Origin: an uncultured Clostridium sp.
GTDB lineage: Bacteria; Bacillota; Clostridia; TANB77; CAG-508
DNA: 64,000 bases
NCBI GenBank assembly: GCA_930990555.1
Contig: CAKNPW010000001.1
Coordinates: 35,007-99,006 of the forward strand
Reading direction: 5' to 3'
In this document: piece after piece, positions 7,873 through 45,850 of the stretch
Position numbering within the stretch: the first letter of the stretch is position 1
Layout: each line of letters opens with the position of its first letter
Notes under the pieces: model-generated
Databases searched by the model: none
Told to the model about the DNA's origin: nothing
The model's input: only the letters and a program-made list of their open reading frames with translations
Made by a program: the position numbers and the translations under genes

Positions 7873-7910
7873 CGGATTTAAGAACGTTCCGGGATTTGGG
7901 GACGTTCCTT
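7873..7910. repeat. Family-A repeat, copy A1 (tandem ggatttaagaacgttcc and gggatttggggacgttcc)
   Basis: Core GGGATTTGGGGACGTTCC, shared with seven other loci in the window. Confidence 0.7.
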
Positions 7911-8044
7911 TTTTCCCTTTTTTCTACTATGCTATTATATTGTAATTACTTTGTAAAAGCAACTATAATTATACTATTTACTTCAAAGAAAAAAGGAAGA
8001 AAACTTTTACAAGTTCCTTCCCTTATTTTGAGGTATTTCCGTCC

Positions 8045-8251
8045 TTACTTTTTAAGTGCAACCAAAATTGCCGCTATGACAAATGTTAATACAAAGCAGG
8101 ACCAGCCTGAGGCCAGAGCCCATATTATTTTTAAGTCTCCCATTGCTGCTGTGACAACTGTTGGGCCAATAATTCCGCCAATTCCACAACCTATTGATGC
8201 GCCAAGTATTACTTCAAAGTTATCACTTATTCTCCGCCACATTCTTTTCAT
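8045..8251 (-). CDS. Small Gly-rich membrane protein (GlsB/YeaQ/YmgE-like, or bacteriocin-like)
   Basis: 68 aa, two hydrophobic helices with GxxxG repeats (GASIGCGIGGIIG). Strong RBS GGAGGT 8 nt upstream of the ATG. The overlapping 229-aa plus-strand ORF is low-complexity and judged spurious. Confidence 0.5.
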   Translation of the reverse strand: MKRMWRRISDNFEVILGASIGCGIGGIIGPTVVTAAMGDLKIIWALASGWSCFVLTFVIAAILVALKK

Positions 8252-8338
8252 AGTATTACCTCCTCAAAACTTTTATACTTTTATATCATACCATATATTG
8301 GTTATAATTTCAAATTTTGTTCGTCTTTTAAGGCTTCT

Positions 8339-9499
8339 CTACACCATTCTTATAAACTTATTTTTTCCAAACTGTAATATTGTTTCTTTCGGTTTTAGAC
8401 TAGTTGATATGTCTTCTATAATCTCACCATTAACCCTTACTCCTTTACCTACAATCATTCTTTTTGCTTCACTTTTAGAAGGGGCAAATCCGACTTTTAC
8501 AAGTAAATTACAAATATTTATTTCATCATTATTTTCCATTTTGAATTCTTTTATATCTTCTGGAATTCCACCTTTAGCTATTTGATTATATCTTTCTTCT
8601 GCCATTGCTATTTTATCTTCACCATGGTACATTCTAATAATTTCTTCTGCATATCTTTTATGAGCTTTTACTATATCTTCTTTAATTAAATTTTCTGCTT
8701 CTTTTAAATCCATATCTGTTGTTAGTCTAAAATATTCCATTAAAACCTCATCCGGAATCTTCATAGCCTTTTCATACATTACTTCTGGGCTTTCATCAAT
8801 TCCTATATAATTATCTAATGATTTACTCATTTTTTCTTTTCCATCTAAGCCAACTAATAATGGAAATGTTAAAACAACTTGTCTTTCTTGCCCATAATCT
8901 TTTTGAAGTTCTCTACCAACTAAAAGGTTAAAAGTTTGATCTGTTCCACCAATTTCTATATCTGCATTTAATGCTACAGAATCATATCCTTGCATTAATG
9001 GATACAAAAGTTCATGCATAGAAAGTGGTAAATTATTTTCATATCTATTTTTAAAATCATCTCTTTCTAAAATTCTTGCAACTGTGTATTTGCTTGTTAA
9101 TTCTATAATATCTTTAAAATTCATCTTAGAAAGCCATTCTGAATTATATGCAATTCTTGTTTTATCTTTATCTAATATTTTTGTAACTTGCTTTAAATAT
9201 GTTTCTCCAGCCTTTCTTGTTTGTTCGAATGTTAAGGCTGGTCTTGTTTTACTCTTACCTGATGGATCTCCAATCATTCCTGTAAAATCACCTATAACAA
9301 ATACCACTTCATGTCCCATATCTTGAAATGTCTTTAATGCTCTTAACACAACTGTATGACCTAAATGTAAGTCTGGTCTTGATGGGTCTGCTCCCAATTT
9401 TATTGTAAGTTTTCTTCCACTTTTTAATTTTTGTTCTAATTCTTCTTGTGAAAATATATCCACAGCTTTTCTTTTTATTTTTTCTAATCCATTATTCAT
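8339..9499 (-). CDS. tyrS: Tyrosine--tRNA ligase
   Basis: HIGH motif HLGH, KMSKS motif, C-terminal S4-like domain (RMIVGKGVRVNGE). Preceded by a Tyr-specific T-box leader. Confidence 0.85.
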   Translation of the reverse strand: MNNGLEKIKRKAVDIFSQEELEQKLKSGRKLTIKLGADPSRPDLHLGHTVVLRALKTFQDMGHEVVFVIGDFTGMIGDPSGKSKTRPALTFEQTRKAGETYLKQVTKILDKDKTRIAYNSEWLSKMNFKDIIELTSKYTVARILERDDFKNRYENNLPLSMHELLYPLMQGYDSVALNADIEIGGTDQTFNLLVGRELQKDYGQERQVVLTFPLLVGLDGKEKMSKSLDNYIGIDESPEVMYEKAMKIPDEVLMEYFRLTTDMDLKEAENLIKEDIVKAHKRYAEEIIRMYHGEDKIAMAEERYNQIAKGGIPEDIKEFKMENNDEINICNLLVKVGFAPSKSEAKRMIVGKGVRVNGEIIEDISTSLKPKETILQFGKNKFIRMV

Positions 9500-9595
9500 A
9501 TTAATATTCTCCTTACTATCATCTTAGTTTTTTGATTATATTATATGAATTTTCGTAGAAGAACCCATCGATTATTGTTTTCATTTTAAACGATT

Positions 9596-9850
9596 GGGTC
9601 ATAGCATCACCTCCTAAAAATTCAAAAAGACACATCTCCTTAAAGGACGACGTGTCGTGGTACCACCTTTATTTACAATTTAATAATTGCCTCATTTAAG
9701 CTTGTTCGTAGCTACACGTTAATTACTATAAGAAATGTAATTCGTAAATTTATATACTAGCAATTTCCACCATGTATTGCCTCTCTATAAGTTACTATAA
9801 ATTACTACTTGGTTTCTTTTTAAAACATAATTAAATTCAATTGTATTACT
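9596..9850 (-). promoter_or_regulatory. T-box riboswitch leader (Tyr specifier UAC) with intrinsic terminator
   Basis: On the minus strand: AGAGAG stem I motif followed by CAAUACAUGG (UAC codon plus A). T-box sequence AAAGGUGGUACCACG (rc of 9652-9668). Terminator GACACGUCGUCC...GAGAUGUGUC followed by UUUUUG. Confidence 0.8.
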
Positions 9851-9879
9851 ATTATACCTGCTGTTATCAATATTTGCAA
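9851..9879 (-). promoter_or_regulatory. Sigma-A type promoter for the tyrS leader (TTGCAA, 17 nt spacer, TATAAT)
   Basis: rc of 9874-9879 is TTGCAA; rc of 9851-9856 is TATAAT; spacer is 17 nt. Confidence 0.6.
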
Positions 9880-9907
9880 GTGTTATTTTATCATTTTATT
9901 TATATTA

Positions 9908-9960
9908 TAGGGATTTTAAGGAACGTCCCCAAATCCCGAGGGACGTCTCAAATCCCTATA
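9908..9960. repeat. Family-A repeat, copy A2 (double unit, inverted orientation)
   Basis: tagggattttaaggaacgtccccaaatcccgagggacgtctcaaatccctata. Confidence 0.7.
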
Positions 9961-9963
9961 TTT

Positions 9964-10398
9964 CTATAAGAACTTCTTTAGCTGTTCTACATTGTTTTCT
10001 TGGAATGTTACAAAATTATTTAATAGGTCTTTTACGTCTTTTGATGCTTGGTCTGCATCATTATTCATTAGTTTTCTTCCTTCTATTATTCCCATTGTTG
10101 TTCCTTCTATCATTATTTCTGCTATATGTGATGGGCTCTTGTCTGCCATCGTATTCATTTGTACTCCTGTCCATCCCATTATTGTATTCATAACGTTTTT
10201 GTCTTCTGGTATTTCTCCGTAGTTTTCGTATAATTTGTTTACTCTATCCATTACTTGTCCATATTGTGTATATTGAAAACTTAAGTTATCTTTTAATTTA
10301 TTATCATCTAGTTTCTCTGCAACAAAAGATATTGAATCCATTCCCATTTTTGTGGCTTTATGAATTTCTTTTAATATTTTTAAATTTTTCTCTTCCAT
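9964..10398 (-). CDS. Hypothetical helical protein (possibly a four-helix-bundle / coat-F-like family)
   Basis: 144-aa ORF with RBS and good codon-usage continuity; no recognisable catalytic motif. Confidence 0.5.
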   Translation of the reverse strand: MEEKNLKILKEIHKATKMGMDSISFVAEKLDDNKLKDNLSFQYTQYGQVMDRVNKLYENYGEIPEDKNVMNTIMGWTGVQMNTMADKSPSHIAEIMIEGTTMGIIEGRKLMNNDADQASKDVKDLLNNFVTFQENNVEQLKKFL

Positions 10399-10489
10399 AT
10401 TTTTACCTCCTTTGTTTATTGTTTCTATTTTTATTTGTTTTATACTTTATATTACCAATAAATATATTTAGAATACAAAATTTATTGTA

Positions 10490-10532
10490 ATTTACATAAC
10501 TTTTTAACTTTAAGCTCTGTTCCTAAAGTTCA
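10490..10532. repeat. Family-B palindromic repeat, copy B3
   Basis: atttacataactttttaactttaagctctgttcctaaagttca. Confidence 0.65.
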
Positions 10533-10569
10533 AAAAAACAAAAACAGTGGTTAAAATATTATCCACTGT
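10531..10569 (-). terminator. Rho-independent terminator downstream of gene 10585-11217
   Basis: Hairpin ACAGTGG(10544-10550)/CCACTGT(10563-10569), followed on the minus strand by a T-run. Confidence 0.6.
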
Positions 10570-10584
10570 CTTTGCCTTTTGGTC

Positions 10585-11217
10585 TTACGCAAAGAAATTC
10601 TCTTTGTTCGCGTTTCTTCTTACACGTAATCGCTGAAAGAATATTTTGGTTTTCTCATAATTATCTTTTGAACAATTATTTAACGAACGCCTCTCAATTT
10701 TTTCAAAAGTATCTTCATCGCAAATTCCCTCTGTTATAGCTTTCTTAAGAATAATATCAATGATAGATTTACTTAAGCCATACATTATTGCGATATCTCC
10801 TTTCGTTTTACTGGTTTCTTTCGCAAAATATTCCGCTATCTGCTTAATTTTTTCATCAGATAACTGGCATATTACAAACTCATCACGCTTCTTCCGAAGC
10901 GTTCGATAATGTGCAATTGTGCTCTCTGCACTTCCGTCAGGAGCAAACCTTCTTTGATTTTGAATGGATTTTCTCTCTATCTGATTTACCATATAATCAT
11001 TAATCAGATAGTGTGTTATTGCATAATCAATAAAATCCGTAACAGCCTTCTGATTTAGCTCATATTCCTTGGCTATTTCTGTTTTTGACTTGAAATTTGA
11101 ACTTATATAAGCTTCTGCAATTTCAATTGCAAACTCTCCAAAATCTCTTTCAGAGAGCTCTAACTTTAATTGTCTAAATGACCGTGGCATATTATACCTC
11201 CTTATTAATTCTTTCAA
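10585..11217 (-). CDS. Putative DNA-binding protein with two HTH-like segments
   Basis: 210 aa. Segments SKTEIAKEYELNQKAVTDFIDYAI and SKTKGDIAIMYGLSKSIIDIILKKAI resemble HTH/sigma region-4-like modules. Family not recognised. Confidence 0.35.
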   Translation of the reverse strand: MKELIRRYNMPRSFRQLKLELSERDFGEFAIEIAEAYISSNFKSKTEIAKEYELNQKAVTDFIDYAITHYLINDYMVNQIERKSIQNQRRFAPDGSAESTIAHYRTLRKKRDEFVICQLSDEKIKQIAEYFAKETSKTKGDIAIMYGLSKSIIDIILKKAITEGICDEDTFEKIERRSLNNCSKDNYEKTKIFFQRLRVRRNANKENFFA

Positions 11218-11282
11218 CTGTTTTCAATAGGTACTATTTTAACACATTTTATTAATTAAGTCTACATAATTTTAGCACTTTG

Positions 11283-11849
11283 TTATACATTCCTATTTAA
11301 TATGTACTTTCCCGTAAATTCATCTTTTAACATATCCATGCTGATTCTGTCATAATACTTTCCATCAATAAATTCACATTTTCTTCTTCGACCACATTCT
11401 TTAAATCCACATTTTTTATAGCATGCTATTGCTCTTTCATTAAATTCTACAACATCTAATTTTATATTATTTAAATTCAAATAATTAAATCCATAATCCA
11501 AAATTAAATTAATTGCCTCTGTTCCATACCCCTTTTCTCTTTCTTCTACATTACCTATAAATATACCTAAAGTTCCTCTTCTACTTAAGTGATCTATACT
11601 TTCCAATCCTACTGTTCCTATTAATTTATCTTCGGCTAATGTTACAATGTCTAACGTTGCTTCATCATCCATAGCTTTTGTCAGATATTCCTTCTCTTTT
11701 TCTAAAGTCATTATTTTTCCACTCATGCCTACATAATCTGTAGTTCTAAAATCATTCAACCATTCTGCATACTTTTCTGCATCTTCTATATTTTTAGGTG
11801 CCAGATAGATATTTTTTCCAATTAATTTTTTATAATACATATTCATCAC
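11283..11849 (-). CDS. GNAT family N-acetyltransferase (RimJ/RimL-like)
   Basis: 188 aa. Motifs GTVGLESIDHLSRRGTLGIFIG and GYGTEAINLILDYGF...AIACYKKCGF are typical GNAT motifs A/B. Confidence 0.75.
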   Translation of the reverse strand: MMNMYYKKLIGKNIYLAPKNIEDAEKYAEWLNDFRTTDYVGMSGKIMTLEKEKEYLTKAMDDEATLDIVTLAEDKLIGTVGLESIDHLSRRGTLGIFIGNVEEREKGYGTEAINLILDYGFNYLNLNNIKLDVVEFNERAIACYKKCGFKECGRRRKCEFIDGKYYDRISMDMLKDEFTGKYILNRNV

Positions 11850-12903
11850 CTCTTAATATTTTTAAATATTTTGTTGTAAATTTTGTTAATTCATCTAAAT
11901 ATTTCTTATTTTTTCCTTTTTCTATAATTTCATTCGCAACTTTATATGCCATTTCGTATTCTTCTTTGCGTACTTCTTTTCTATCATATGCACTTTTTAA
12001 TTCATCTTCATCTAATAAATGTATTCTTCCATCTGGTACTATTACTACATCTAAGTAAAGGTCATCTTCATATGGTATCCCATCATCTTCACCTATTTCT
12101 CTGGCAATATCAAAATACCATTCAGCTATATTGTCATTCTCATCAAACATTGTAGTAATGCAAAAATTTTTACCATCTGGATATATTTCTAGCCAGTTAT
12201 AATCATTTGCTAAAATACATCTTTTTTCTACATCAATTCGCCATTCTTTTCTAACTCTTTTTATTGTTAACAAAGATATATTCCCTTTAAATTCATCATT
12301 ATCTATTCTTAGATTTTTAAAATTACTTTCTAAAATATCCTTTGCCTTATTTCTACCATCAGCATATCTCTTTTTTAGAGTTATCCAATATCGTTGTACT
12401 ATTCTATTATCTTCAATAACTTCATTTTCTAATTTACCACCATTTTTTATAATTGTTCTGGCTGATGCTACATTGTTTTTATTACAAGTCATTAACACAT
12501 TTTCTATACCTAATTTTTTAGCTTCTTGAAGTGCTAATGAAATCATTTTAGTACTATATCCTTTATTTCTTTCGGAAGGCCTTATAGAATCTCCAATATG
12601 TCCTCCAAATTCAAATAAATATTCATTTAAAGCACATCTTATTTGAATTATTCCTATCAATCTTTTATCTCGTTTTCTAAAAGCTAAATATAATACTGAT
12701 GGCACTCTTCCTCTTGCTTTACTTTTTTCTTCAGAAAGATCGTCATTAATTTTTTGCATCCAAGTTTCAAATGTTTCTTCTCTTTCTAATCCTCCACCAC
12801 CAGGTATTTCATTTTCATTATTCTGTATAAATTCTTGTTTAAATTCTCCTATTTGTTCTTTATATTCTTTTGATGGAAATATTAATTCTAATTCATCTTT
12901 CAT
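11830..12903 (-). CDS. Fusion protein: N-terminal GNAT acetyltransferase domain plus C-terminal DUF402 (FomD/Ntdp-like nucleotide hydrolase) domain
   Basis: 357 aa. GNAT core (IGIIQIR...GGHIG...NKGYSTKMISLALQEAKKLG). C-terminal WYFDIA...DLYLDVVIVPDG...LDEDEL is characteristic of DUF402. Confidence 0.55.
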   Translation of the reverse strand: MKDELELIFPSKEYKEQIGEFKQEFIQNNENEIPGGGGLEREETFETWMQKINDDLSEEKSKARGRVPSVLYLAFRKRDKRLIGIIQIRCALNEYLFEFGGHIGDSIRPSERNKGYSTKMISLALQEAKKLGIENVLMTCNKNNVASARTIIKNGGKLENEVIEDNRIVQRYWITLKKRYADGRNKAKDILESNFKNLRIDNDEFKGNISLLTIKRVRKEWRIDVEKRCILANDYNWLEIYPDGKNFCITTMFDENDNIAEWYFDIAREIGEDDGIPYEDDLYLDVVIVPDGRIHLLDEDELKSAYDRKEVRKEEYEMAYKVANEIIEKGKNKKYLDELTKFTTKYLKILRGDEYVL

Positions 12904-12916
12904 TGTATATTTCCTC

Positions 12917-13480
12917 CTATAACTTAAATTTTTCCTGTATTATTTTTGCTGTTTCTTCTGCTGAAATATTTGTATTGTCTATCTTTATATAGTTCTCGTA
13001 TTTTACTTCTCCGTCATAAGAATTTAATCTATGCTTATCTACAGATTTTATTAATTCCTTTTCACTAAATTCTAAATCTCTTTTAGTAGGTTTATTTTTT
13101 AGTCTATTTTCAGTTTTATTCCTTTTTAGTCTTTCTTCTAATGATGTTTCTAGTTCGACCACATAAAATTCACCATTTTCTTTATCATATATATCCTTTA
13201 TTCGTTGTACCCAATCCCAATCTTCTTGTCTTTCGAAAGCCCACATTAATGTAAATATCATTCCTTTTAAATCACTTTTTGCAACCTCTTCGAAGATTGA
13301 AAATCTAAACAAATCTGTTAAACGTTCTCTTTGTTCTGACTTAAATTCGAAAAACTTTAATGGTAAATCTATCGTTTCGTGATTATGCATAAATTTTAAC
13401 CCTGTCAATTTTGCAAGCTCCTGTCCAACTGTCATTTTGCCTACAGCTTGTGGCCCACATATTAATACAAACTTAGCCAT
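12917..13480 (-). CDS. P-loop NTPase / small-molecule kinase-like protein (AAA_33/CPT-like)
   Basis: 187 aa, Walker A ICGPQAVGKMT at the N-terminus; size and layout match small-substrate kinases. Confidence 0.5.
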   Translation of the reverse strand: MAKFVLICGPQAVGKMTVGQELAKLTGLKFMHNHETIDLPLKFFEFKSEQRERLTDLFRFSIFEEVAKSDLKGMIFTLMWAFERQEDWDWVQRIKDIYDKENGEFYVVELETSLEERLKRNKTENRLKNKPTKRDLEFSEKELIKSVDKHRLNSYDGEVKYENYIKIDNTNISAEETAKIIQEKFKL

Positions 13481-13482
13481 AA

Positions 13483-13931
13483 CTATTCCCCCTTTATCTT
13501 TCTAATCATTTTATAGTGAGTTTTTGTTTCATCATAAACTTCAAATCCAGTTTTTTCATATAATTTCTTAGCCGGATTTTCTTTAAATACTTGTAATACA
13601 GTATCTACATTACTTTTTTGTCTGGTACAAGTAGTCAAAATATTCATCTCTATATTCTACAAATTTTATGATATTTTTTATCTACAAATAACATTGCAAC
13701 ATGAGAATAATCTCTTATACAGACCATTCCAACTATTTTGTCTTCTGCTTTTGCAACAAAAATCTTAAAATTATTTTTTAGTTGCGCTAAAATACTATCA
13801 TAATCAATAAACTTATAAAAATTAGTTACTCCTTCATCTGTATAATCTGGTACCTCAAATTCGTCAAAAACTCTTTTTACCAATTCTAACGTTTCCTTTA
13901 ACTCCTCTTCTTTCATCTCTTCATATCTCAT
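13483..13931 (-). pseudogene. GNAT acetyltransferase disrupted in motif A (two fragments, 13650-13931 and 13483-13647)
   Basis: N-terminal fragment ends ...MLFVDKKYHKICRI* where the R/QxxGxG/A CoA-binding motif should be. The next ATG opens a 54-aa ORF with the GNAT C-terminal motif VLQVFKENPAKKLYEKTGFEVYDE. Confidence 0.6.
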
Positions 13932-14237
13932 AATTTTTATCCCCTTTTATAAATATATCTCTATTTTAGAATATTATATCTTTTAATATATAAGAAAAAA
14001 AGCCTTACAAAGAAATCTTTAAGACTCCTTTGTAAGACTTGAATTATTTCTTATCTAATCTTACTTTAAGTGTAAGTAATTTTTTATTACTCTTTACCGC
14101 TCAAGTTTATACTCTTAGGTAAACTCTTAAAACATAGTTCTATTTTAGCACCTAATTTAAATTACGTCAACCAGTTCTTATGAATTTCTAATTTATTTTT
14201 TTTATCTATATGGTTAAGAAATTAAATTTAAACATCT

Positions 14238-14639: not shown

Positions 14640-14654
14640 ATTTTATCCTCCTTG

Positions 14655-15596: not shown

Positions 15597-15619
15597 TAAA
15601 TTTCTCTCCTTTTTCTATT

Positions 15620-20533: not shown

Positions 20534-20575
20534 GGTTCTCCTCGGGATTTGGGGACGTTCCTCAAAATCCCTATT
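20534..20575. repeat. Family-A repeat, copy A3
   Basis: cgggatttggggacgttcctcaaaatccctat. Confidence 0.7.
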
Positions 20576-20581
20576 ATATTT

Positions 20582-25368: not shown

Positions 25369-26049
25369 ATGGATTATGAAATAATGATGAATAATAATTT
25401 AAAAATTGGTATGGAAGCTCCAGATTTTGATGCTGTTTCTACAATGGGAGACATTTCTCTTTCTAATTATAAAGGTAAATGGGTAGTATTTTTCTCACAC
25501 CCAGGCGATTTTACACCTGTGTGTACAACCGAGATAATTGGTTTTGCTAAAGCTGATACATATTTTAAAAAAATCAATACAGAGCTTATTGGAATAAGTG
25601 TTGATGGTTTAAATTCTCATCTTGCTTGGCTTTATGATATTTATTTAAAAACAGGTCTTGTTGTAAATTTTCCTATAATTGCAGATCAAAATGGAGTTAT
25701 CGCCAGAAAATATGGAATGATTTCTAATGATGTAAGTTCTACAGAAACTGTTAGAAATGTATTTATTATTGATGATAAAGGAATTATAAGAAGCATTTTT
25801 GTCTATCCTATGAATATAGGTAGATATATTCCAGAAATATTAAGAACTGTAACAGCATTACAATATGCTGATAAGAATAATTGTATGACACCTGCCAACT
25901 GGGTTCCAGGAAATCCTATGATTGTTCCACCTCCTAAAACATTTAATGCTTTACGTGAAAGGAATGAAAATATTAATAAAAATAAAAATGGTATGTCTTG
26001 GTATTTAAGTTTTAAAGATGTTAATAATACTCCAAAATTGGATAAATAG
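25369..26049 (+). CDS. Peroxiredoxin (AhpC/TSA family, Prx6-like)
   Basis: Peroxidatic cysteine motif GDFTPVCTTE; thioredoxin fold length. Confidence 0.8.
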   Translation: MDYEIMMNNNLKIGMEAPDFDAVSTMGDISLSNYKGKWVVFFSHPGDFTPVCTTEIIGFAKADTYFKKINTELIGISVDGLNSHLAWLYDIYLKTGLVVNFPIIADQNGVIARKYGMISNDVSSTETVRNVFIIDDKGIIRSIFVYPMNIGRYIPEILRTVTALQYADKNNCMTPANWVPGNPMIVPPPKTFNALRERNENINKNKNGMSWYLSFKDVNNTPKLDK

Positions 26050-26078
26050 GGATTTAGGGACGTTCCTTTTTTCCCTAT
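26047..26078. repeat. Family-A repeat, copy A4 (contains the peroxiredoxin TAG stop)
   Basis: tagggatttagggacgttccttttttccctat. Confidence 0.7.
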
Positions 26079-26159
26079 TTTTTCTTACATTCTTCTAAAA
26101 AAGCCTTAAAAATATTGTTCATATTTGCATCTTTTTTTAAGATAAATTTACTTGTTTAA

Positions 26160-27729: not shown

Positions 27730-27874
27730 ACTCCAAATTATAAGTATAAACTTATTATAGCATCATTTTTATCTGTTGTAAACGTTTGTTCGTATTTTGT
27801 GATTAAGAAATATTTACCATATTTGTTATAATTTGGTAATTAATATATTATCTATTTTTCATATGCAACAAAAA

Positions 27875-27936
27875 ATAGGGATTTAAGGAACGTCCCCAAA
27901 TCCCTATTCTATAGGAGTGTTCCCAAATCCCTACAT
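27875..27936. repeat. Family-A repeat, copy A5 (double unit)
   Basis: tagggatttaaggaacgtccccaaatccctattctataggagtgttcccaaatccctacat. Confidence 0.7.
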
Positions 27937-27947
27937 TACTATTCAAT

Positions 27948-35296: not shown

Positions 35297-36661
35297 TTAG
35301 CTTAATCTTTGTTCTATCAATTCTGCTATAGATTTAGCTTTTTCTGTTATGTACTCTTGATCTGTTCCTTCTATCATAACTCTTACTAGTGGCTCTGTTC
35401 CAGATGCTCTTATTAATACTCTTCCGTTTCCTTCAAATTCTTTTTCTACTGTTTCTATAGTATTTCTGATAACTGCATCTTTATCAAAATCATATTTTTT
35501 TTCATTAGAAACTTTAGCACCAACTAGTACTTGAGGATAAATCTTTATTATTTCTTCTAGTTTACTTGCCTTTTCTGCTTTTTCTAGCATTATAGATATA
35601 AACATTAATGATGTTAAAATTCCATCTCCTGTAGGATTATAATCTAAGAATATAATATGTCCAGATTGTTCTCCTCCTAAGTTGTATCCGCCTTTTTTCA
35701 TTTCTTCTAATACATATCTATCTCCTACTTTTGTTCTAATAAAGTTAAGTTTGTTTTCTTTAGCATATATATCTAATCCTAAATTACTCATAACTGTTGC
35801 AACTAATGTATCTTTCTTTAATGTTCCTTTTTCTTTCATGTAACTAGAAACTATTGCCAATATTTTGTCACCGTCTATTACTTCTCCTTTTTCATCAACT
35901 AATAGACATCTATCTCCATCACCATCATAAGCAATACCTAAATCATAATCATTTTCTACAACATATTTTTGAAGCATTTCTAAGTGTGTTGAACCACAGT
36001 CTTTATTAATATTTATTCCATTTGGTGTATTATTTATAATTTTATGGTTTATTTTTAATTTAGAAAAAACTTTTTCTGCAACTTCATATGTTGCACCATT
36101 CGCTGTGTCTATTACTACTTTAAAATCATCTCTATTATATTTTTCTATGATTTCTTCAAAGTTCTTTCTAAAGAAATATACATATTCATCTACTAATTCT
36201 TCAGCATTTTCTGATATTCCAATTTTATCATTACAAGCTGTAAGTTCTTCTAATTTTCCAGAATCCATAACTTCTTCTATTTCTTCTTCTATGTCATCTG
36301 GTATTTTAGTTCCTTCATTACTAAAGTATTTTACCCCATTAAACTCATAAGTATTATGAGAAGCAGAAATTACAACACTTGCATCAGCCTTTAATTTTTT
36401 TGTTAAGTACGCTACTGCTGGTGTTGGCAAAACACCTAATTGTTTTACATTTGCTCCATAACTTAAAAATCCTGCTGTCATTGCACTCTCTATTAAAGTT
36501 CCTGAAATTCTAGTATCTCTGCCTATTAAAATTGTTGGACTATGGTCGGAATGTTTAGCCAAAACATATGCGCCTGCCTTTGCAACTTTATATACTAACT
36601 CTGGTGTTAGTTCTGTGTTTGCAATTCTTCTAATTCCATCTGTTCCAAAATATTTTCTCAT
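35297..36661 (-). CDS. glmM: Phosphoglucosamine mutase
   Basis: FGTDGIRR N-terminus; active-site ISASHNTYEFNGVKYF. Confidence 0.85.
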   Translation of the reverse strand: MRKYFGTDGIRRIANTELTPELVYKVAKAGAYVLAKHSDHSPTILIGRDTRISGTLIESAMTAGFLSYGANVKQLGVLPTPAVAYLTKKLKADASVVISASHNTYEFNGVKYFSNEGTKIPDDIEEEIEEVMDSGKLEELTACNDKIGISENAEELVDEYVYFFRKNFEEIIEKYNRDDFKVVIDTANGATYEVAEKVFSKLKINHKIINNTPNGININKDCGSTHLEMLQKYVVENDYDLGIAYDGDGDRCLLVDEKGEVIDGDKILAIVSSYMKEKGTLKKDTLVATVMSNLGLDIYAKENKLNFIRTKVGDRYVLEEMKKGGYNLGGEQSGHIIFLDYNPTGDGILTSLMFISIMLEKAEKASKLEEIIKIYPQVLVGAKVSNEKKYDFDKDAVIRNTIETVEKEFEGNGRVLIRASGTEPLVRVMIEGTDQEYITEKAKSIAELIEQRLS

Positions 36662-36683
36662 TTTATCTTCCTCCTACAATTCA

Positions 36684-36720
36684 TATAGGGATTTTGGGGA
36701 CGTTCCTTAAAATCCCTATA
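36684..36720. repeat. Family-A repeat, copy A6 (perfect 12-bp-stem hairpin)
   Basis: tatagggattttggggacgttccttaaaatccctata, about 20 nt upstream of the glmM start. Confidence 0.75.
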
Positions 36721-36780
36721 AATTTTATTTAATCTATAATAGATATAATAGAAAAAACCGCTTTAAATTCTTACTTTTGC

Positions 36781-36816
36781 GTAGGGAAAAGAAACACCGT
36801 CCCCAAATCCCTACAT
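36781..36816. repeat. Family-A repeat, copy A7 (contains the argS stop codon)
   Basis: gtagggaaaagaaacaccgtccccaaatccctacat. Confidence 0.65.
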
Positions 36817-38517: not shown

Positions 38518-38585
38518 AAAATTCTCCTTATCCTATCCTATTTTCCGTGATTATTATATACTAAATATATGTATATTGCAACAAA

Positions 38586-38615
38586 AAAGCAGTAGATATT
38601 GTTTACTGCTTTTAA
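38586..38615 (-). terminator. Intrinsic terminator downstream of the plsC-like gene
   Basis: AGCAGTA/TACTGCT stem with A/T runs on both sides. Confidence 0.5.
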
Positions 38616-39904: not shown

Positions 39905-39936
39905 TTAATATTGCATCCTTTCATTTTTAATATCTA

Positions 39937-40746
39937 TTATCCTATAAATATTGTTAAGAATATTGCTAAAATTAAATATATAATTAATGTAAATTTATAT
40001 AAAACTATTATTGCTAAATATTCATTTATAAATGCTTCTGGAAAGTAATACCATAAAGTTTTAGAACCTTCACCTGTGGCTTTTATATGAAATTTTGAAG
40101 AATAAATTTTAGCTCTTAGTATATGAAAATTATTACTTACAAAAGCTATATTTTTATTTATTTTTAATTCTTTTAGTTTTTCATTAGAAAACTTAAAGTT
40201 CTCTAATGTATTTTTAGATTTATCTTCTTTTATAATGTTTTTTGGCGGTATATTATGAGTAATTAAATATTTTTCCATTGCCTCTGCTTCAGTTATTGTT
40301 TCTTGTCTTACCTTTCCACCAGATACAATTATTTTGGGTTTGATTTTCTGTTTATTATATAGGTTTATTGCTAAATTTAATCTTTTTGTTAATGCTTTTG
40401 TTAATTGATTTCCATATACCAAATATCCACCTAAAACAACAATAGCATTATAGTTTTTTCTTTTAATTTTAAAGTTAACTGCTATGCTTGATATACAGAA
40501 TATAATAAATGTTGTTGAAAAATATATTGATATATATCTTATAAAGCTCATTATTTTATTATCAAATATACGCGGAATTATAGTAATGATAAGAACCATA
40601 ACTCCTAATGCAAATATTAAATATTTCCTTTTGAATATTTTTCTTTTCCTTACTATATCTGTTAGCATGCCTGATATACCACTATATATTAATAAAATTC
40701 CTATTACCAAAAATATATTTAAAAATATATTTTCCATAAGCATCAC
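39937..40746 (-). CDS. DUF218 (YdcF/ElyC/SanA-like) membrane protein
   Basis: N-terminal TM helices, then IVVLGG...IIVSGG DUF218 core. Confidence 0.6.
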   Translation of the reverse strand: MMLMENIFLNIFLVIGILLIYSGISGMLTDIVRKRKIFKRKYLIFALGVMVLIITIIPRIFDNKIMSFIRYISIYFSTTFIIFCISSIAVNFKIKRKNYNAIVVLGGYLVYGNQLTKALTKRLNLAINLYNKQKIKPKIIVSGGKVRQETITEAEAMEKYLITHNIPPKNIIKEDKSKNTLENFKFSNEKLKELKINKNIAFVSNNFHILRAKIYSSKFHIKATGEGSKTLWYYFPEAFINEYLAIIVLYKFTLIIYLILAIFLTIFIG

Positions 40747-40752
40747 CTAATT

Positions 40753-43092
40753 CTATTCACTTGCTTTTTCTAAATCTTGGCTTAAATTATTAATTAAATA
40801 TTTAAGTCCTGTAACTACAATATATGCCAAAATTAGAGCTGATACTAATATAATTATTCCCTGCTCACTTATACCACTTAAATGTAATAAATTTTTAAAT
40901 AAAATTACTGCAAAGAAGAAACCAATTGCGGTAGTTGTACACAAGAATGTACTTATTCTATTAAATGGCCTACAAGCTTCTATTACTGCAAAAATACTTA
41001 CTCCACCAATAATTAAGTACATTAGTGTTTCTGCCTCTTCTATGCCTAAGCCTAAACCTTCTCTAGAGAATGTTAATAAAACAATACTAATAATTATTGT
41101 TAGTGCATATGGTAATGCATTTTTTATTACTGTTCTTAAGAAAGTTCCTTGTAATGGTTTTGAATTTTCTAAGAATGATAAGAAGAATGATGTATAACCT
41201 TCTATTACTAAATCTATTAATGTTATTTGTATTGGTATGAATGGAAATGCTGTATTTGTTACTATATTAAATAATGATAATAACATTGAATATATTGTTT
41301 TAATAAAGAATATTCTAGCAACATTTGTTATGTTGTTTACAACTCTTCTTCCTTCCATTAATACATCTTTAAGCACACTAAAATCTGAATTTAATAATAC
41401 AATTTGTGAAACTTGTCTTGCAACATCTGAAGCTTCTGGTAATGTTATACTACAATCAGCTTGTTTTAATGCAACTACATCATTAACTCCGTCTCCAGTC
41501 ATAGCTACTGAATGACCTTTTTCTTGAAGTGCTTTTACTATTAAACTTTTTTGATGTGGTAAAACCCTAGCAAAAACACTATATTTATCTACTAATTCTG
41601 GAATTTCATCATCTGAACTTATAGTTGATAGATCTATATATGAATCATAAGATTCTAATCCTGCTTTTCTTGCAATACTTGAAACTGTTAATGGATTATC
41701 TCCAGAAATTATTTTTATATCTACAGATTGTGTTTTAAAGAAACCTAACATTTCTTTTGCATTTTTTCTTAACGGATCATCTAATGTAATTGCTGCAACA
41801 ATCTCTAGTTTTGGTAAATTTTCATCACTTACAAGTTCTTTAGAATAACCCACAAATAACATTCTTTTTCCTGCTTTTTGTGCTGATACTATTTCTTCTG
41901 GCATTTCCATATCACTTTTTTCTATTAAACGTTCTGGTGCTCCTAGTACTATAGAGCCCACTTTATCGAAGCTTATTGAACTCCATTTTCTTTCTGAAGA
42001 AAATGCCATTCTATCTGCTACTTCGAATTTATCTTCTCCTTTGTAATAATCTTTAAGAGCCATAAATGTAGCATTGTTATCAGTCATTTCATTTACAAAT
42101 GCTGTCATCATAGTTTGCATATTATGTGGCATACATTTTTCGTTATATATTTTTACTTCATCGACTTTCATTTTACCTTCTGTAATTGTTCCTGTTTTGT
42201 CTAAACATAATGTATCTATATGTGCTAATGTTTCTACACTATATAAATCTTGAACTAATACTCTCTTTTTAGCAAGTTTTATTACACCTGTTGCTAATGA
42301 TATTGTTATAAGAAGCATAAGTCCTTTTGGAAGCATTCCTAACAATGCTGCTGCAGTAGAAACAACTGAATTTGTTATATCTACATTTCTAAAGAAGTAT
42401 GCTTGTACAAATAAAATGATTCCTACTGGAATTATTACAAAACTTGTAAAATTTGTAACTCTTTTCATTGAATTTACAAGTTCTGATTCCGCTCTCTTGT
42501 ATTTTTTAGTTTCACTTGTAATTTGTGCTGCAAAGTTATCTTTTCCTACTTTTTCTACTTTTGAATAACATTTTCCACTAACTACATAACTTCCTGATAG
42601 TAATTTATCCCCTTTTTGTTTTAATATTGTGTCTGATTCCCCTGTAAGTAAAGATTCGTTAACTTCAACTTCTCCATCAATTACTTCCGAATCTGCACAT
42701 ATTTGTTTTCCTGCTTCTAGAATTATTACATCATCTAATACAATTTCATCTATGTTAATTTCTTTTTCTCTTCCATTTCTTACAACTGTAGCTTTTGATA
42801 CTTTTAATACAGATAGTTTTTGTACTAAGTTTCTAGCATGAATTTCTTGTACGATTCCAATTATGATATTTACTATAATAATTAACATATACGCTAAGTT
42901 TGTATATGCCTTTACTGCTATTAATGCTATTGCTATTAATAGATTAAATAAGTTAAATAATGTACATACATTATCTCTAATTATCTCCCAATTGCTTCTG
43001 GTTTTATCGTCTTCTACTTTATTTATTTTTCCTTCTGCTATTCTTTCTTGTATTTGCTCTTCTGTTAAGCCTTTTAATTCTTCCTTGTCCAA
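40753..43092 (-). CDS. P-type cation-transporting ATPase (P2-type, Ca2+/Mg2+-like)
   Basis: DKTGTIT phosphorylation motif, TGES actuator motif, MTGDGVND hinge, about 10 TM segments. Confidence 0.8.
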   Translation of the reverse strand: MDKEELKGLTEEQIQERIAEGKINKVEDDKTRSNWEIIRDNVCTLFNLFNLLIAIALIAVKAYTNLAYMLIIIVNIIIGIVQEIHARNLVQKLSVLKVSKATVVRNGREKEINIDEIVLDDVIILEAGKQICADSEVIDGEVEVNESLLTGESDTILKQKGDKLLSGSYVVSGKCYSKVEKVGKDNFAAQITSETKKYKRAESELVNSMKRVTNFTSFVIIPVGIILFVQAYFFRNVDITNSVVSTAAALLGMLPKGLMLLITISLATGVIKLAKKRVLVQDLYSVETLAHIDTLCLDKTGTITEGKMKVDEVKIYNEKCMPHNMQTMMTAFVNEMTDNNATFMALKDYYKGEDKFEVADRMAFSSERKWSSISFDKVGSIVLGAPERLIEKSDMEMPEEIVSAQKAGKRMLFVGYSKELVSDENLPKLEIVAAITLDDPLRKNAKEMLGFFKTQSVDIKIISGDNPLTVSSIARKAGLESYDSYIDLSTISSDDEIPELVDKYSVFARVLPHQKSLIVKALQEKGHSVAMTGDGVNDVVALKQADCSITLPEASDVARQVSQIVLLNSDFSVLKDVLMEGRRVVNNITNVARIFFIKTIYSMLLSLFNIVTNTAFPFIPIQITLIDLVIEGYTSFFLSFLENSKPLQGTFLRTVIKNALPYALTIIISIVLLTFSREGLGLGIEEAETLMYLIIGGVSIFAVIEACRPFNRISTFLCTTTAIGFFFAVILFKNLLHLSGISEQGIIILVSALILAYIVVTGLKYLINNLSQDLEKASE

Positions 43093-43213
43093 AATTTACA
43101 CTCCTTTTCTTTCGAATTTTTCTGTATTTTATCACACACTTTAATATATTACTATATTATTTGATAAAAAACAAATAGTTTAATAAAAAAGAATTTTTTT
43201 TATTTAATTTGTC

Positions 43214-43249
43214 AAAAAAATAGACACTTTTTTGTGTCTATTTTTTGTT
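43214..43249. terminator. Hairpin terminator on the leader-distal side of the CRISPR array
   Basis: AAATAGACAC-TTTTTT-GTGTCTATTT. Confidence 0.55.
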
Positions 43250-43258
43250 GATAATTTA

Positions 43259-43566
43259 CTTTTTATTCTCTAGCGAGTAATGTAAAACAAAGCTAACAAC
43301 AGCAACAATGTAGTCACAGACGTAGAAGAGTTTCAAACCTCTAATGAGTAATGTAAAACATTTTAAGTCTACTTCTAATAGTGGCATTTAACAAGTTTCA
43401 AACCTCTAACGAGTAATGTAAAACAAATGAAGGTAAAGAAGTACAACAAGGAAATGACGAAGAAACGTTTCAAACCTCTATTGAGTAATGTAAAACAAAT
43501 AGCTTTATTTGTCGGAAAATTTGCAGACTTTAAAGGGGTTCAAGCCTCTAATGAGTAATGTAAAAC
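43259..43566 (-). CRISPR. Orphan CRISPR array: 5 repeats of 30 nt (consensus GTTTCAAACCTCTAATGAGTAATGTAAAAC on the plus strand) and 4 spacers of 41, 35, 42 and 40 nt
   Basis: Repeats at 43259-43288 (degenerate, 23/30), 43330-43359, 43395-43424, 43467-43496 and 43537-43566 (2 mismatches). The rc repeat GTTTTACATTACTCATTAGAGGTTTGAAAC has the classic GTTTT...GAAAC ends. An AT-rich candidate leader lies at 43567-43800. No cas genes in the window. Confidence 0.75.
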
Positions 43567-43816
43567 TATATAAATATATACAATATATAGCATTAAAAAT
43601 AAAAAAAATCAATAAAAAAGTAAAAAAAGATGAAAAAAGTACGTCGACGTCAAAAAGTCAAATCGCTGAAACATGCTATAAATAAAGATTTTTTAAATAT
43701 TTAAAAATAACGTAGATATCGACGTGCTTTTTTATTAAATTATTACTTTTTTACATTCAAAAACGCTATCAAAAAATATTCTTTGATAGCGTATCTATAT
43801 AAAATAAAAGGGGAAT

Positions 43817-44374
43817 TTAACGTATTTCACTTGCTAGTACTGACATTTCATAATCTAGCTTTCTCATTACTTTTGCGGCTTTCAATAACTTTTTAGAAGT
43901 CGCTTTGGTAACATTATTATTTTTATATTTCAACTCATGTTCTAAACTAGCCCAAAAGTCCATAGCCATTGTTCTTATCTGGATTTCAGCTTTTACATAT
44001 ACCTTACCCATATCAGTCTCTACAGGTACTTCTACAATTAAATGTAAACTTGAATATCCACTTTTTTTAGGGGATTGAATATAATCTTTTTCGTTCAATA
44101 TTCGTATTTTGGGATTTTCCATTAATAATTCTCTTACTATATAAACATTTTCCTGAAAAGGGCAAATAATTCTAATTCCTGCAATATCATTTACCTTTTC
44201 TATAAGTTCATTATAGTTTAAATCATATTTTTTCTTCTTCATTTTATTTATAATACTTTTGGGACTTTTTATTCTGTATTTAACATGATCTATAAGATTT
44301 ACTTCCTTGTACTTCACCTCCATATCTTCTATAATTTTTTTGATTTCTTCTATGCTAAGTGAGTATATTGACAT
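43817..44374 (-). CDS. Small alarmone synthetase (RelQ/RelP-type GTP pyrophosphokinase)
   Basis: RelA/SpoT synthetase-domain motifs DIAGIRIICPF, YSSLHLIV, EIQIRTMAMDFWA; 185 aa. Confidence 0.75.
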   Translation of the reverse strand: MSIYSLSIEEIKKIIEDMEVKYKEVNLIDHVKYRIKSPKSIINKMKKKKYDLNYNELIEKVNDIAGIRIICPFQENVYIVRELLMENPKIRILNEKDYIQSPKKSGYSSLHLIVEVPVETDMGKVYVKAEIQIRTMAMDFWASLEHELKYKNNNVTKATSKKLLKAAKVMRKLDYEMSVLASEIR

Positions 44375-44562
44375 TAATTTTTCATAAATGTCACTCTTTA
44401 CTGTTAATTTTTCATTTTGTAATACTTCCTTTTTTGAATTGATAATATTATTTTCTAATTTATCGTCACTCCTTTCTTTCTTAGTATGTGTATATTCTAC
44501 CTATAAATTATTTCCAAATTATTCCCGAATTGTGTTTTATTTGTAAATTAATTTAACATAGA

Positions 44563-44590
44563 AAAAAGCCTTAAATATTAAGGCTTTCTT
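44563..44590 (-). terminator. Intrinsic terminator downstream of 44654-45196
   Basis: AAAGCCTTA-AATA-TTAAGGCTTT. Confidence 0.55.
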
Positions 44591-44653
44591 GAATTTATTA
44601 AAACAATTTTAACGCAAAACTTATAAATTTTTGTTTAAAATAACTTTATTTAA

Positions 44654-45196
44654 TTAAAAATTTTTTAACTTTCTTATAAAAATAAGACTTTCTATTATAT
44701 CTATTATTGCATATGCAATCATTAATGAACCAATTAATGTTATAATTGCTCCGCTATTTAGTATAATATATATACCAAATATAATCATTAAAATTGCAAG
44801 CACTAAACAGAATATCCATATAGATGAATTAAATTTTTTTAAATTAAAAGATAAATATAATCGTGTAATACCACTATATATAATCCATGCTCCAACTATT
44901 ATTCTTAATATTGCACCTATTGCATCTGTATAAATAATAGCAATTATTCCTGCAATACTTGCAATTAATCCACATAGCAAATCAAAATTAAAGTGTTCTC
45001 CTCTACCTCTTCCTTTAACGTAATTTACTAGTCTAGCAACACCTATTAATAGAAATAACAATCCTATTAAACAAGAAATTACTTTTACTGCTCCTTCGTG
45101 AAAAACACATAATATTACTCCAAATAGTCCAAAAATTATTGATACCAATATATTAGACATACCAGATTTTTTTAACAAATCTTTTATTTGGTCCAT
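44654..45196 (-). CDS. DUF308/HdeD-like membrane protein
   Basis: 180 aa. Repeated GxxxxxG-containing TM helices. Downstream of the Asp23-family gene, as in amaP/asp23 operons. Confidence 0.5.
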   Translation of the reverse strand: MDQIKDLLKKSGMSNILVSIIFGLFGVILCVFHEGAVKVISCLIGLLFLLIGVARLVNYVKGRGRGEHFNFDLLCGLIASIAGIIAIIYTDAIGAILRIIVGAWIIYSGITRLYLSFNLKKFNSSIWIFCLVLAILMIIFGIYIILNSGAIITLIGSLMIAYAIIDIIESLIFIRKLKNF

Positions 45197-45200
45197 AATA

Positions 45201-45584
45201 TTATTCCTCCATATTATCTATTTTTTCATCTCCATCATCATCTACTTTTACACCTTGTACATTTACAACAACTTTTTCTACTTTATTTCCTGTCATATTT
45301 TCTACTTCTTCTTTAACCTTAGCTTGAATATTTTTTGCAACTTCTCTTATGTTTACTCCATATCTTACAATAATGTTTATTTCTATTTTTACATTATCTC
45401 CATCTGCTTCTACCTTTATACCTCTTGACATTTGTTTTTTGCCACTTATTGCTTTTAAGCCTTCTGTAAAACCTCCAGCCATTTTTGCAACACCATCAAT
45501 TTTAGAAACAGCCATACCAGCTATTGTTGCAACAACCTCATTTGCTACATTAATTTCTTGTTCTAAATTTTTTTCTTCGTCCAT
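45201..45584 (-). CDS. Asp23/Gls24 family envelope stress protein
   Basis: 127 aa, EVVATIAGMAVSKIDGV core of the Asp23 family. Confidence 0.75.
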   Translation of the reverse strand: MDEEKNLEQEINVANEVVATIAGMAVSKIDGVAKMAGGFTEGLKAISGKKQMSRGIKVEADGDNVKIEINIIVRYGVNIREVAKNIQAKVKEEVENMTGNKVEKVVVNVQGVKVDDDGDEKIDNMEE

Positions 45585-45793
45585 AAGAATTACCTCCTAT
45601 ATAAATATTATTTTCATATAAATTATTTCCATTATGTCTATTTATATAATAACTTAATTAAATTTATTTGTCAATCTGACCAAAATAGCATTTTTCTGCA
45701 TATATATATTTACATAAAAATACACCTTTTAAATGTTAATATTTTCTAACATTTGAAGGTGTATTTAAATTTACTTTTATTTTCTATTTCTAA

Positions 45794-45850
45794 ATAAGGA
45801 TTTCAAGGAACGTCCCCAAATCCCTAAGGAATGTCCACATATCCTTAAAT
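45794..45850. repeat. Family-A repeat, copy A8 (double unit, abuts the ABC gene stop)
   Basis: taaggatttcaaggaacgtccccaaatccctaaggaatgtccacatatccttaaat. Confidence 0.65.

Follow-up and report, generated by a model that had tools for sequence, protein, structure and literature searches.

Family A: probable REP-type modular hairpin elements with a RAYT-type partner in uncultured low-GC gut Clostridia

A 64-kb stretch of DNA from an uncultured Clostridium sp. (contig CAKNPW010000001.1, positions 35,007 to 99,006; below, the window) contains eight loci of a short interspersed hairpin repeat, here named family A. The members of this family are probably short non-coding hairpin DNA elements of the repetitive extragenic palindromic (REP) type. 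Their hosts form a clade of uncultured gut Clostridia with low GC, and their likely partner is a Y1 enzyme of the RAYT (REP-associated tyrosine transposase) type. Family A is a new example of an already known kind of element. The repeat has a modular hairpin build, is spread through intergenic regions across the clade, differs between relatives by whole modules and, in relatives of the window genome, is associated with a RAYT gene. We infer that this enzyme recognises the single-stranded hairpin via its GGGGAC loop and seeds or reshapes the copies.

Structure of the element

The window has a GC content of 27%, and nearly all of its genes lie on the minus strand. The core string GGGACGTTCC occurs in it seven times, against 0.12 occurrences expected from shuffled sequences, and the longer string TATAGGGATTTT, with at most one mismatch, also occurs seven times against 1.2 expected. 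The eight loci amount to about one per 8 kb. A search with an nhmmer profile found no additional family A copy in the window at E<0.01.

All copies are described in the orientation in which the G-rich segment reads 5' to 3'. Aligned in this way, they have as the repeated unit a module of about 20 nt, (C/A)GGGATTT[G/A]GGGACGTTCC(T), and not the palindrome of about 37 nt proposed in an earlier, sequence-only reading of this DNA. The module consists of a 5' arm GGGATTT followed by the conserved G-rich segment GGGGACGTTCC. Modules are single or arranged head to tail. The closing sequence after the last module is either AAATCCC or the T-rich TTTTTTCCC; the former pairs with GGGATTT, so that GGGGACGTTCC comes to lie in the loop of a hairpin. 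Among 190 copies the closure is TTAAA(A)TCCC in 108 and TTTTTTCCC in 57 (type T); both arms are present in 108 of the 190.

In the window and the related genomes the copies form 185 clusters: 129 singles, 53 doubles and three with three to four modules. The two modules of a double are directly repeated, head to tail, in 48 of 53 cases and inverted in five, and thus the organisation is not that of REPINs or BIMEs (bacterial interspersed mosaic elements). The start-to-start spacing has one mode at 20-21 nt, corresponding to bare modules, and another at 35-36 nt, corresponding to complete hairpin units. There is no conserved GTAG tag, as GTAG is found at the 5' arm in 5 of 165 copies; CGTC does not mark an end of the element either and arises solely from GACG in the loop, read on the complementary strand.

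Past the 3' end, in the G-rich direction, a T-run follows 35-51% of the hairpin-type copies and 15-39% of type T copies, the background being 10%. On the opposite, C-rich strand the frequency is 4-12%, at or below background. These frequencies do not depend on the gene context, including whether a gene ends upstream. As it is present whatever the context, the T-run is a part of the element.

In the window, each of the eight copies forms a stable fold on either strand, with energies from -9 to -28 kcal/mol and mostly z <= -2. As RNA, the G-rich strand folds better by 2-8 kcal/mol in eight of the eight copies, as expected from its G-U pairs. In the best copy (U6 in Table 1) this strand pairs over 17 bp, including G-U pairs, with a 3-nt loop. 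The window contains no four-tract G-quadruplex motif. In about 0.9 Mb of clade DNA (loci L009-L116; the prefix L denotes the fetched loci), all 20 canonical G-quadruplex motifs (four G3+ tracts, loops of at most 12 nt) lie inside family A module arrays.

Distribution and gene context

Genomes, one per species, were scanned for the 17-mer GGGATTTNGGGACGTTCC, and the resulting counts are lower bounds. There are at least 108 exact matches, mostly in one Clostridia clade, and thus the motif is not a local duplication. Among the matches listed, nearly all are in about 26 metagenome-assembled genomes (MAGs) labelled uncultured Clostridium sp. or Clostridia bacterium, for example UMGS1570 (about 29 blocks), BRZ_CR_bin60, ERR7167062_bin.47, CAG:354, HGM13682 and UMGS1423, and in other phyla the matches are isolated and in keeping with chance. 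Metagenome contigs as long as 156 kb encode proteins identical to those of the window, hence the organism is uncultured. One match among 2.9 M viral contigs of IMG/VR argues against a phage origin. A literature search for the motif strings of family A returned only unrelated primers and eukaryotic sites.

Gene gaps were delimited by a caller of open reading frames (ORFs) scored by codon usage, which reproduces the database gene calls in the window. By this measure, 188 of the 190 non-redundant copies are intergenic. Elements occupy 41% of the convergent gaps, 17% of the tandem ones and 11% of the divergent ones. In the frame of the G-rich reading, 64 copies are in tandem gaps co-directionally with the genes, 65 in tandem gaps in the opposite direction, 37 between convergent and nine between divergent genes. 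Thus both orientations are equally common, as the 64:65 ratio in tandem gaps demonstrates. According to PMC3733652, such a distribution is the classic one of REP elements. The 5' end of the G-rich reading is close to gene boundaries (median 16 nt from a stop codon, 44 nt from a start codon), and its 3' end is 78-112 nt from the next gene.

Module turnover at orthologous sites

Synteny with the window, at 85-95% identity, was found in the genomes UMGS1570, HGM13682 and CAG:354 and in two strain-level contigs. At every comparable site the element is present in all genomes compared, and its build is variable. The sites of U1, U2, U4, U5, U6 and U8 (Table 1) differ by one whole module between relatives, and the type of the arm varies as well. 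At the peroxiredoxin gene prx the C-terminus of the protein differs, as the element supplies the stop codon. One additional element, upstream of an Asp23 gene, is present in the relatives only. Thus the polymorphism between strains that had been suggested as a check takes the form of gained or lost modules, and no clean pair of an empty and a filled site was seen among the orthologous sites. Since the element is kept at every comparable site and rebuilt there, the copies are long-term residents that change by gain and loss of modules; exchange between copies probably reshapes them too.

The RAYT-type enzyme and its flanking repeats

A screen for ORFs with elements on both sides yielded positions 5960-6733 of locus L078, encoding a 257-aa HUH/Y1 protein. 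It scores 28.6 bits with the Pfam family Y1_Tnp (cut-off 23) and 68.6 bits (E 5e-19, curated cut-off 80) with the NCBIfam family REP_Tyr_transpos, REP-associated tyrosine transposase. The protein has 1622 homologues, many of them on contigs of about 1 kb. Twenty-two homologues, when aligned, share an invariant HUH motif (H61, H63), Y121 within YIHNNPVKA, a YxxSS motif and a C-terminal GIGKNRI segment. A phmmer search of the protein against PDB sequences gave no match; the top PDB sequence match of the profile is 4ER8, TnpA-REP of E. coli. The same structure (4ER8_A) is the best Foldseek match of the AlphaFold2 (AF2) model, with E 1.3e-5 and TM-score 0.67 at a mean predicted local distance difference score (pLDDT) of 88.7, and the next matches are the ISDra2 and IS608 transposases (2XM3, 2VJV, 2XMA). 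The protein is longer than the solved E. coli chain (257 vs 165 aa in 4er8_A). Its C-terminal part of about 110 residues (143-256 in the AF2 model) is predicted to be helical. Pfam matches to helix-turn-helix (HTH) domains in this part are sub-threshold (Sigma70_r4 with E 8.6e-4, HTH_19, HTH_23), and one homologue, P0116, has precomputed HTH_23 and Sigma70_r4 assignments. By these similarities, the likely partner enzyme is an HUH/Y1 tyrosine transposase of the RAYT (TnpA-REP) type with an HTH-looking, helical C-terminal extension.

The gene has the same address, holB-PSP1-ferredoxin-[RAYT]-2-oxoacid:ferredoxin oxidoreductase (KOR), in six lineages (L078, L117, L122, L127, L128, L210), where the proteins are 51-100% identical to that of L078. 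Judging by this one shared syntenic site, RAYT seems to behave as a single-copy, vertically inherited gene. A search for an associated RAYT- or IS200-like transposase had been recommended on the strength of the window alone, and relatives carrying the same repeat indeed have a Y1 gene bracketed by inverted family A copies. In five lineages, L078, L117, L122, L127 and L128, inverted C-rich copies are located downstream of the gene in five of five cases, overlapping the RAYT stop codon in some of them. Upstream, clear family A modules, G-rich on the coding strand, are present in four of the five, and in L127 the copy is seen only in a permissive stem scan. L210 (protein P0065) has the gene at the same site with G-rich modules upstream, and no inverted copy was seen downstream in this locus. 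At the start of the 8-kb block of L041, about 0.5 kb from the KOR genes, a stretch of 22 aa weakly resembles the RAYT C-terminus (E 0.019). This may be a further RAYT at the same site, the gene being seemingly cut by the block edge. Additional ORFs next to RAYT were found in L210 (214 aa) and L041 (108 aa).

A metagenome scan with the RAYT alignment yielded 80 distant relatives with 25-55% identity, from DNA of 25-66% GC. At most of the distant loci with sufficient flanking sequence, the best inverted repeat between the flanks is a hairpin with a lineage-specific stem and with a loop such as GGGGACGGTTCT, GGGGACAG... or GGGACGG...; the motifs at these homologues include GGGGACGG, GGGGACAG and GGGGTCAG. 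Fifty-seven RAYT-like loci, 52 with distant metagenomic homologues and the five close lineages, were scanned for hairpins with a stem of 6 bp or more and a loop containing GGGAC. Such hairpins are present upstream in 28 of the 57 loci, in inverted orientation downstream in 25, and on both sides in 20. At random positions the permissive stem search succeeds in 10% of cases, and GGGAC is rare within 350 nt; by a rough estimate, the chance level of GGGAC-loop hairpins is below about 2%. The pattern of a GGGAC loop with a lineage's own stem is matched by family A, with its loop GGGGACGTTCC, and likewise by a second palindrome family, family B (GAACTTTA-GGGACGGAGC-TAAAGTTC).

Copies of family B, TGAACTTTA-GGGACGGAGC-TTAAAGTTCA, are located in the window at 4281-4318, 5160-5201, 10500-10537, 49535-49572 and 62504-62541. 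Their architecture, an AT-rich stem with a GGGAC loop, is similar to that of family A. The family is found in the same MAGs (loci L004, L005, L014, L030, L031, L034, L051, L056, L083, L094 and L099), and its loop is similar to the repeats around a distant RAYT homologue in L133 (GGGGACGGAGC). Family B may use the same enzyme or a sister one.

Alternative explanations

Several features of family A resemble those of intrinsic terminators or of hairpins stabilising mRNA 3' ends, which could be kept alike by selection with neither mobility nor a link to an enzyme. Many copies are located a few nucleotides past a stop codon (median 16 nt), convergent gaps are enriched in elements, and T-runs after the 3' arm exceed the background in the G-rich direction. 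A terminator scan flags positions 36684-36720 of the window as terminator-like, and by appearance U4 would be a good terminator for prx and U5 for fba. However, the T-runs do not depend on a gene ending upstream, and the 64:65 ratio in tandem gaps means that half of the copies there face the direction in which T-runs are as rare as 4-12%; a general terminator role was rejected on these grounds. Moreover, three window copies lie immediately upstream of start codons, and the part best conserved across distant lineages is the loop, which in a terminator need not be conserved. The inverted copies around the Y1 transposase gene are left unexplained. A terminator or stabiliser family is therefore unlikely. 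The same indifference to the direction of transcription bears on a role at the RNA level, that is, untranslated-region (UTR) hairpins that would bind a CsrA-like protein specific for GGA, serve as its decoys or modulate the adjacent Shine-Dalgarno (SD) box. The C-rich loop does read AAGGAACG or GAGGAACG, and the element often abuts the SD box of the next gene (at 7873, 20534, 36684 and many other loci). The better RNA folding of the G-rich strand in all eight copies fits such a role as well, but an advantage from G-U pairs is expected of any G-rich strand, and we consider RNA-level function distinctly unlikely. DNA uptake signals are extremely improbable. It is true that inverted pairs of uptake sequences (DUS/USS) in terminators are known from the naturally competent Neisseria and Pasteurellaceae, and that family A has a conserved word of about 18 nt spread over the genome in both orientations. 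However, a large share of DUS/USS is located inside genes, whereas 188 of 190 family A copies are intergenic, and the word is associated with a hairpin partner and with the gene of a Y1 transposase.

The dyad symmetry GGGATTT-N13-AAATCCC is operator-like, and some copies are 14-25 nt upstream of start codons, as might be expected if a dimeric DNA-binding regulator bound the palindromes and the loci formed its regulon. But most copies are past stop codons or between convergent genes, about a third (57 type T copies of 190) have no second half-site, the modules form direct tandem arrays, and the module number at one and the same site varies between close relatives. The adjoining genes, tyrS, argS, glmM, fba, prx and ABC transporter genes, are unrelated housekeeping genes. 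A regulon of this kind is very unlikely. Hardly more credible is a family of miniature inverted-repeat transposable elements (MITEs), derived from an insertion sequence (IS) of the DDE type, carrying terminal inverted repeats and target-site duplications and mobilised in trans. The sequence-only reading had named REP/BIME and MITE-like elements as the nearest analogues. Of the two, the REP type is supported by the spread of the copies, their orientation, the RAYT gene in relatives and the module turnover. Family A does share with MITEs its short, non-coding, dispersed, intergenic and symmetrically inverted sequences. However, the units are 20-60 nt long, compared with 70-300 nt typical of MITEs according to PMC3733652, the dispersed copies have no pair of transposase-type terminal inverted repeats, no DDE transposase is present beside copies among 920 ORFs of the fetched loci, no IS with these ends was found, and the only transposase flanked by the repeats is the Y1 enzyme.

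The REP-type reading with a RAYT partner is thus preferred, and a number of observations weigh against it. Covariation in the outer stem within family A is weak (56% vs 44% in shuffled controls at the first outer position, none further out), and pairing outside the 7-bp core barely exceeds that in shuffled controls; compensatory evolution within the family is not claimed. The conservation of the arm and loop in the fetched loci is partly by construction, since the blocks were fetched with the same 17-mer. The REP_Tyr_transpos score of the enzyme is under the curated cut-off. The five close RAYT loci are orthologous, and so the arrangement of their flanks is partly one inherited event. A tblastn search found no RAYT in the window or within about 15 kb past its ends. 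The RAYT protein P0065, one of seven homologues looked up, comes from the same samples as window contigs (ERZ1478582, GLEN20-1), but the loop of its flanking modules is GGGGACGGACC, so that it is at most a candidate for the RAYT of the window genome. Finally, the data contain no transposition event and no cleavage site, nor a site that is cleanly empty in one genome and filled in another, the differences between genomes being module gain and loss at resident sites.

Possible mechanism

If the REP-type reading is correct, RAYT would bind copies that fold into hairpins in single-stranded DNA, such as that of the lagging-strand template, as do the IS200/IS605 enzymes and TnpA-REP of E. coli. It would then cut and rejoin DNA beside the hairpin, so that copies would be seeded and reshaped in intergenic DNA, and the number of modules would subsequently drift by slippage or by recombination between copies. 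The GGGGAC loop is a likely determinant of recognition or cleavage, since it is conserved while the stems vary between lineages. Elements residing in transcribed gaps would place stable hairpins in 3' and 5' UTRs and may incidentally affect termination or mRNA decay.

A broader proposal is tentative, and we consider it possible rather than probable. According to it, the HTH-bearing RAYT subclass (TIRYT, subclass 2.1) would act on a hairpin whose conserved determinant is the loop, GGGGAC[GA]..., and not the stem or a GTAG tail, and in this clade would power a REP system of truly high copy number. One loop, and perhaps one enzyme, would then serve at least two stem families, A (GGGATTT/AAATCCC) and B (GAACTTTA/TAAAGTTC).

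Copies and other features of the window

All eight loci described in the sequence-only reading were recovered, with positions that agree exactly or differ by a few bases (Table 1). Both orientations do occur, with the G-rich loop on the plus strand in the copies at 7873, 20534, 26047 and 36684 and on the minus strand in those at 9906, 27875, 36781 and 45794. Tandem double units were verified at 7873, 9906, 27875 and 45794. The relations to coding regions noted earlier also hold: the peroxiredoxin stop codon TAG at 26047-26049 is within TAGGGATTT, that of argS at 36811-36813 is within CCCTACAT, the stop codon of the ABC gene is 2 nt from the copy ending at 45850, and the copy at 36684 is 22 nt from the glmM start at 36661. 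For the copy regarded as the best one, the perfect 12-bp DNA stem stands, and the loop is of 13 nt, not 14.

Table 1. Family A copies in the window. Positions are those of the window; the strand is that of the G-rich reading; energies are for RNA folding.
Copy	Position	Strand	Build	Adjoining genes	Energy, kcal/mol	Orthologous sites
U1	7873..7923	+	Degenerate module CGGATTTAAGAACGTTCC, then full module GGGATTTGGGGACGTTCC, closed by TTTTTTCCC and T-run (type T)	14 nt upstream of murL-like start at 7859; C-rich reading on the sense strand of that gene	-16.9 (+), -13.7 (-)	L014, L005, L006: one 18-nt module of difference
U2	9906..9960	-	Two modules, one common closing arm: TATAGGGATTT-GAGACGTCCCTC-GGGATTT-GGGGACGTTCC-TTAAAATCCCTATA	Starts 3 nt past stop of DUF2383-like gene (9964-10398, - strand)	-27.7 (z -4.2)	Single unit; arm GGGATTT in window and L014, GGGAAAA in L005/L006
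U3	20534..20577	+	Single hairpin unit CGGGATTTGGGGACGTTCCTCAAAATCCC; possible degenerate module on left side	Fills 75-nt gap from stop of 101-aa ORF (20582) to flavin reductase start (20506)		
U4	26045..26080	+	Type T: AATAGGGATTTAGGGACGTTCCTTTTTTCCCTATTTTTT	Holds peroxiredoxin stop TAG; between convergent genes	-18.1 (z -4.5)	L027: additional 5' module, different prx C-terminus
U5	27873..27938	-	Two units, ATGTAGGGATTTGGGAACACTCCTATAG and AATAGGGATTTGGGGACGTTCCTTAAATCCCTATTTTTT; T-run in sense direction	Begins about 10 nt past fba stop (27948)	-28.4	L027: first unit absent; other unit present together with unrelated terminator hairpin
U6	36684..36720	+	Best copy: TATAGGGATTTT-GGGGACGTTCCTT-AAAATCCCTATA; 12-bp perfect stem, 13-nt loop	C-rich on glmM sense strand	-22.3 (z -5.7)	L064, L086: arrays of different build
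U7	36781..36816	-	Degenerate type T unit ATGTAGGGATTTGGGGACGGTGTTTCTTTTCCCTAC (profile E 0.1)	Holds argS stop TAG		L064, L086: conserved yet variable
U8	45792..45850	-	Two units, ATTTAAGGATATGTGGACATTCCTT and AGGGATTTGGGGACGTTCCTTGAAATCCTTAT	Starts 2 nt past ABC transporter stop (45853)		L037: two units; L030: one type T unit

Downstream of fba, the orthologue of window positions 27730-27947 in UMGS1570 (L027) contains an unrelated classical terminator hairpin, AAAAGCAGTAGCATATAGCTACTGCTTTT, amid family A-like modules, where the window has the element alone. Beside U1, the tyrS-murL intergenic region (7924-8338) contains about 210 nt including a 68-aa ORF (8045-8251, minus strand). In L014, L005 and L006 this insert is replaced by an unrelated shorter sequence despite flanks of about 95% identity, and thus it is strain-variable.

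Searches at the gathering thresholds of Rfam found no family anywhere in the window. It also contains no tRNA or tmRNA. The 406-nt leader upstream of tyrS (9500-9905) is conserved in relatives and, like the rest of the window, has no Rfam match at these thresholds. A T-box leader would be expected for a tyrS gene of a Firmicute. The longest direct repeats of the window are two paralogous pairs of ABC exporter genes (ABC_membrane and ABC_tran) at 1-4072 and 45853-49447, with 61-70% identity. A CRISPR-like mini-array at 43270-43567, between a P-type ATPase gene and a gene with a RelA/SpoT domain, consists of four copies and one partial copy of GTTTCAAACCTCTAATGAGTAATGTAAAAC with unique spacers of 35-42 nt; there is no cas gene nearby in the window.

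Significance

REP elements and RAYTs have been studied almost exclusively in Proteobacteria, and here the same partnership is encountered in uncultured gut Clostridia with small genomes of 27% GC. Its build is unusual in combining direct modules, a conserved loop and variable stems, and the enzyme seems to belong to the HTH-bearing branch, about whose DNA partners little is established. Family A elements break assemblies, many RAYT homologues being on contigs of about 1 kb, and they supply stop codons and SD-like strings to adjoining genes. Since close relatives differ by whole modules, the elements are useful as strain markers, and they may modulate the adjoining housekeeping genes. The findings on family A do not overturn the current understanding of such elements. 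If recognition does proceed through the loop, its logic would differ from that of the GTAG-REP/RAYT systems, and family A would be the first abundant REP system described in Firmicutes.

Comparison with known systems

The small repeats of Firmicutes include BOX, RUP and SPRITE of Streptococcus pneumoniae, EFAR of enterococci and bcr1 of Bacillus cereus, which are 100-300 nt long and, so far as partners are known, linked to DDE transposases or to none. Family A is like them in being intergenic, structured and located in transcribed regions of low-GC Gram-positive genomes, and BOX also varies in the number of internal modules. However, none of them is similar to family A in sequence.

With the IS200/IS605 elements (IS608, ISDra2), whose enzymes act on single-stranded DNA hairpins, the partner enzyme shares the HUH/Y1 catalytic domain. 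There, the transposase is multi-copy and travels with its ends, whereas here the gene is at one fixed locus and the hairpins are dispersed alone. Besides, the hairpins flanking RAYT are mutually inverted, as in REPtrons.

The similarity to REP/BIME elements and RAYTs of E. coli, Pseudomonas and Stenotrophomonas (PMC3116915, PMC3337134, PMC5581495, PMC3733652; PDB 4ER8) is closer. Both are short, high-copy, extragenic imperfect palindromes, located mainly after genes, between convergent or co-directional genes, in both orientations, as singles and in clusters. In both, the cognate HUH/Y1 gene is bracketed by inverted copies at a conserved site, as if inherited vertically, and the predicted fold of the family A partner is nearest to 4ER8. 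RAYTs are typically single-copy and vertically inherited, and one of their groups is also present in Clostridia (Bertels et al. 2017, PMC5581495). On the other hand, family A has no conserved 5' GTAG tag, and conservation is highest in the loop (GGGGAC...) rather than in the stem or a tail. Its clusters are mostly head to tail, unlike the inverted doublets of REPINs and the alternating copies of BIMEs; it is hosted by a clade of low-GC Firmicutes and not by a proteobacterium, and the partner is about 100 aa longer, with a C-terminal domain that appears to be helical.

A further comparison is with the TIRYT genes. As described by Di Nocera et al. 2013 (PMC3733652), these are RAYT-like genes flanked by inverted repeats with the common motif GGGGWSAS, and some species have moderately abundant dispersed copies, in dimers or clusters. 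The C-terminal HTH domains of TIRYTs are Bac_DnaA_C, HTH_23 or HTH_28. Quentin et al. 2018 (PMC6006769) equated TIRYT with subclass 2.1 of TnpA-REP, which has a C-terminal HTH, and found no REP-like sequences near subclass 2.1 genes. Unlike subclass 2.1 as reported there, family A has clear and abundant hairpins in the flanking repeats; here the likeness is by description and not by the subclass models of those authors. The published TIRYT examples are from Proteobacteria, Acidobacteria and others, and the main text of PMC3733652 mentions neither Firmicutes nor Clostridium. As in TIRYTs and TIRtrons, the protein is longer, RAYT-like and ends in an HTH-like tail, the dispersed copies form dimers or clusters, and the flanking inverted repeats contain a G-rich motif, here GGGGACGT, GGGGACAC or GGGACAG. 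The second modules, GGGGACAC and GGGACAG, fit GGGGWSAS, and the main module GGGGACGT departs from it at position 7 (G for A). Thus family A seems to work in the manner of REP/RAYT systems and, as judged from its sequences, most resembles their TIRYT branch.

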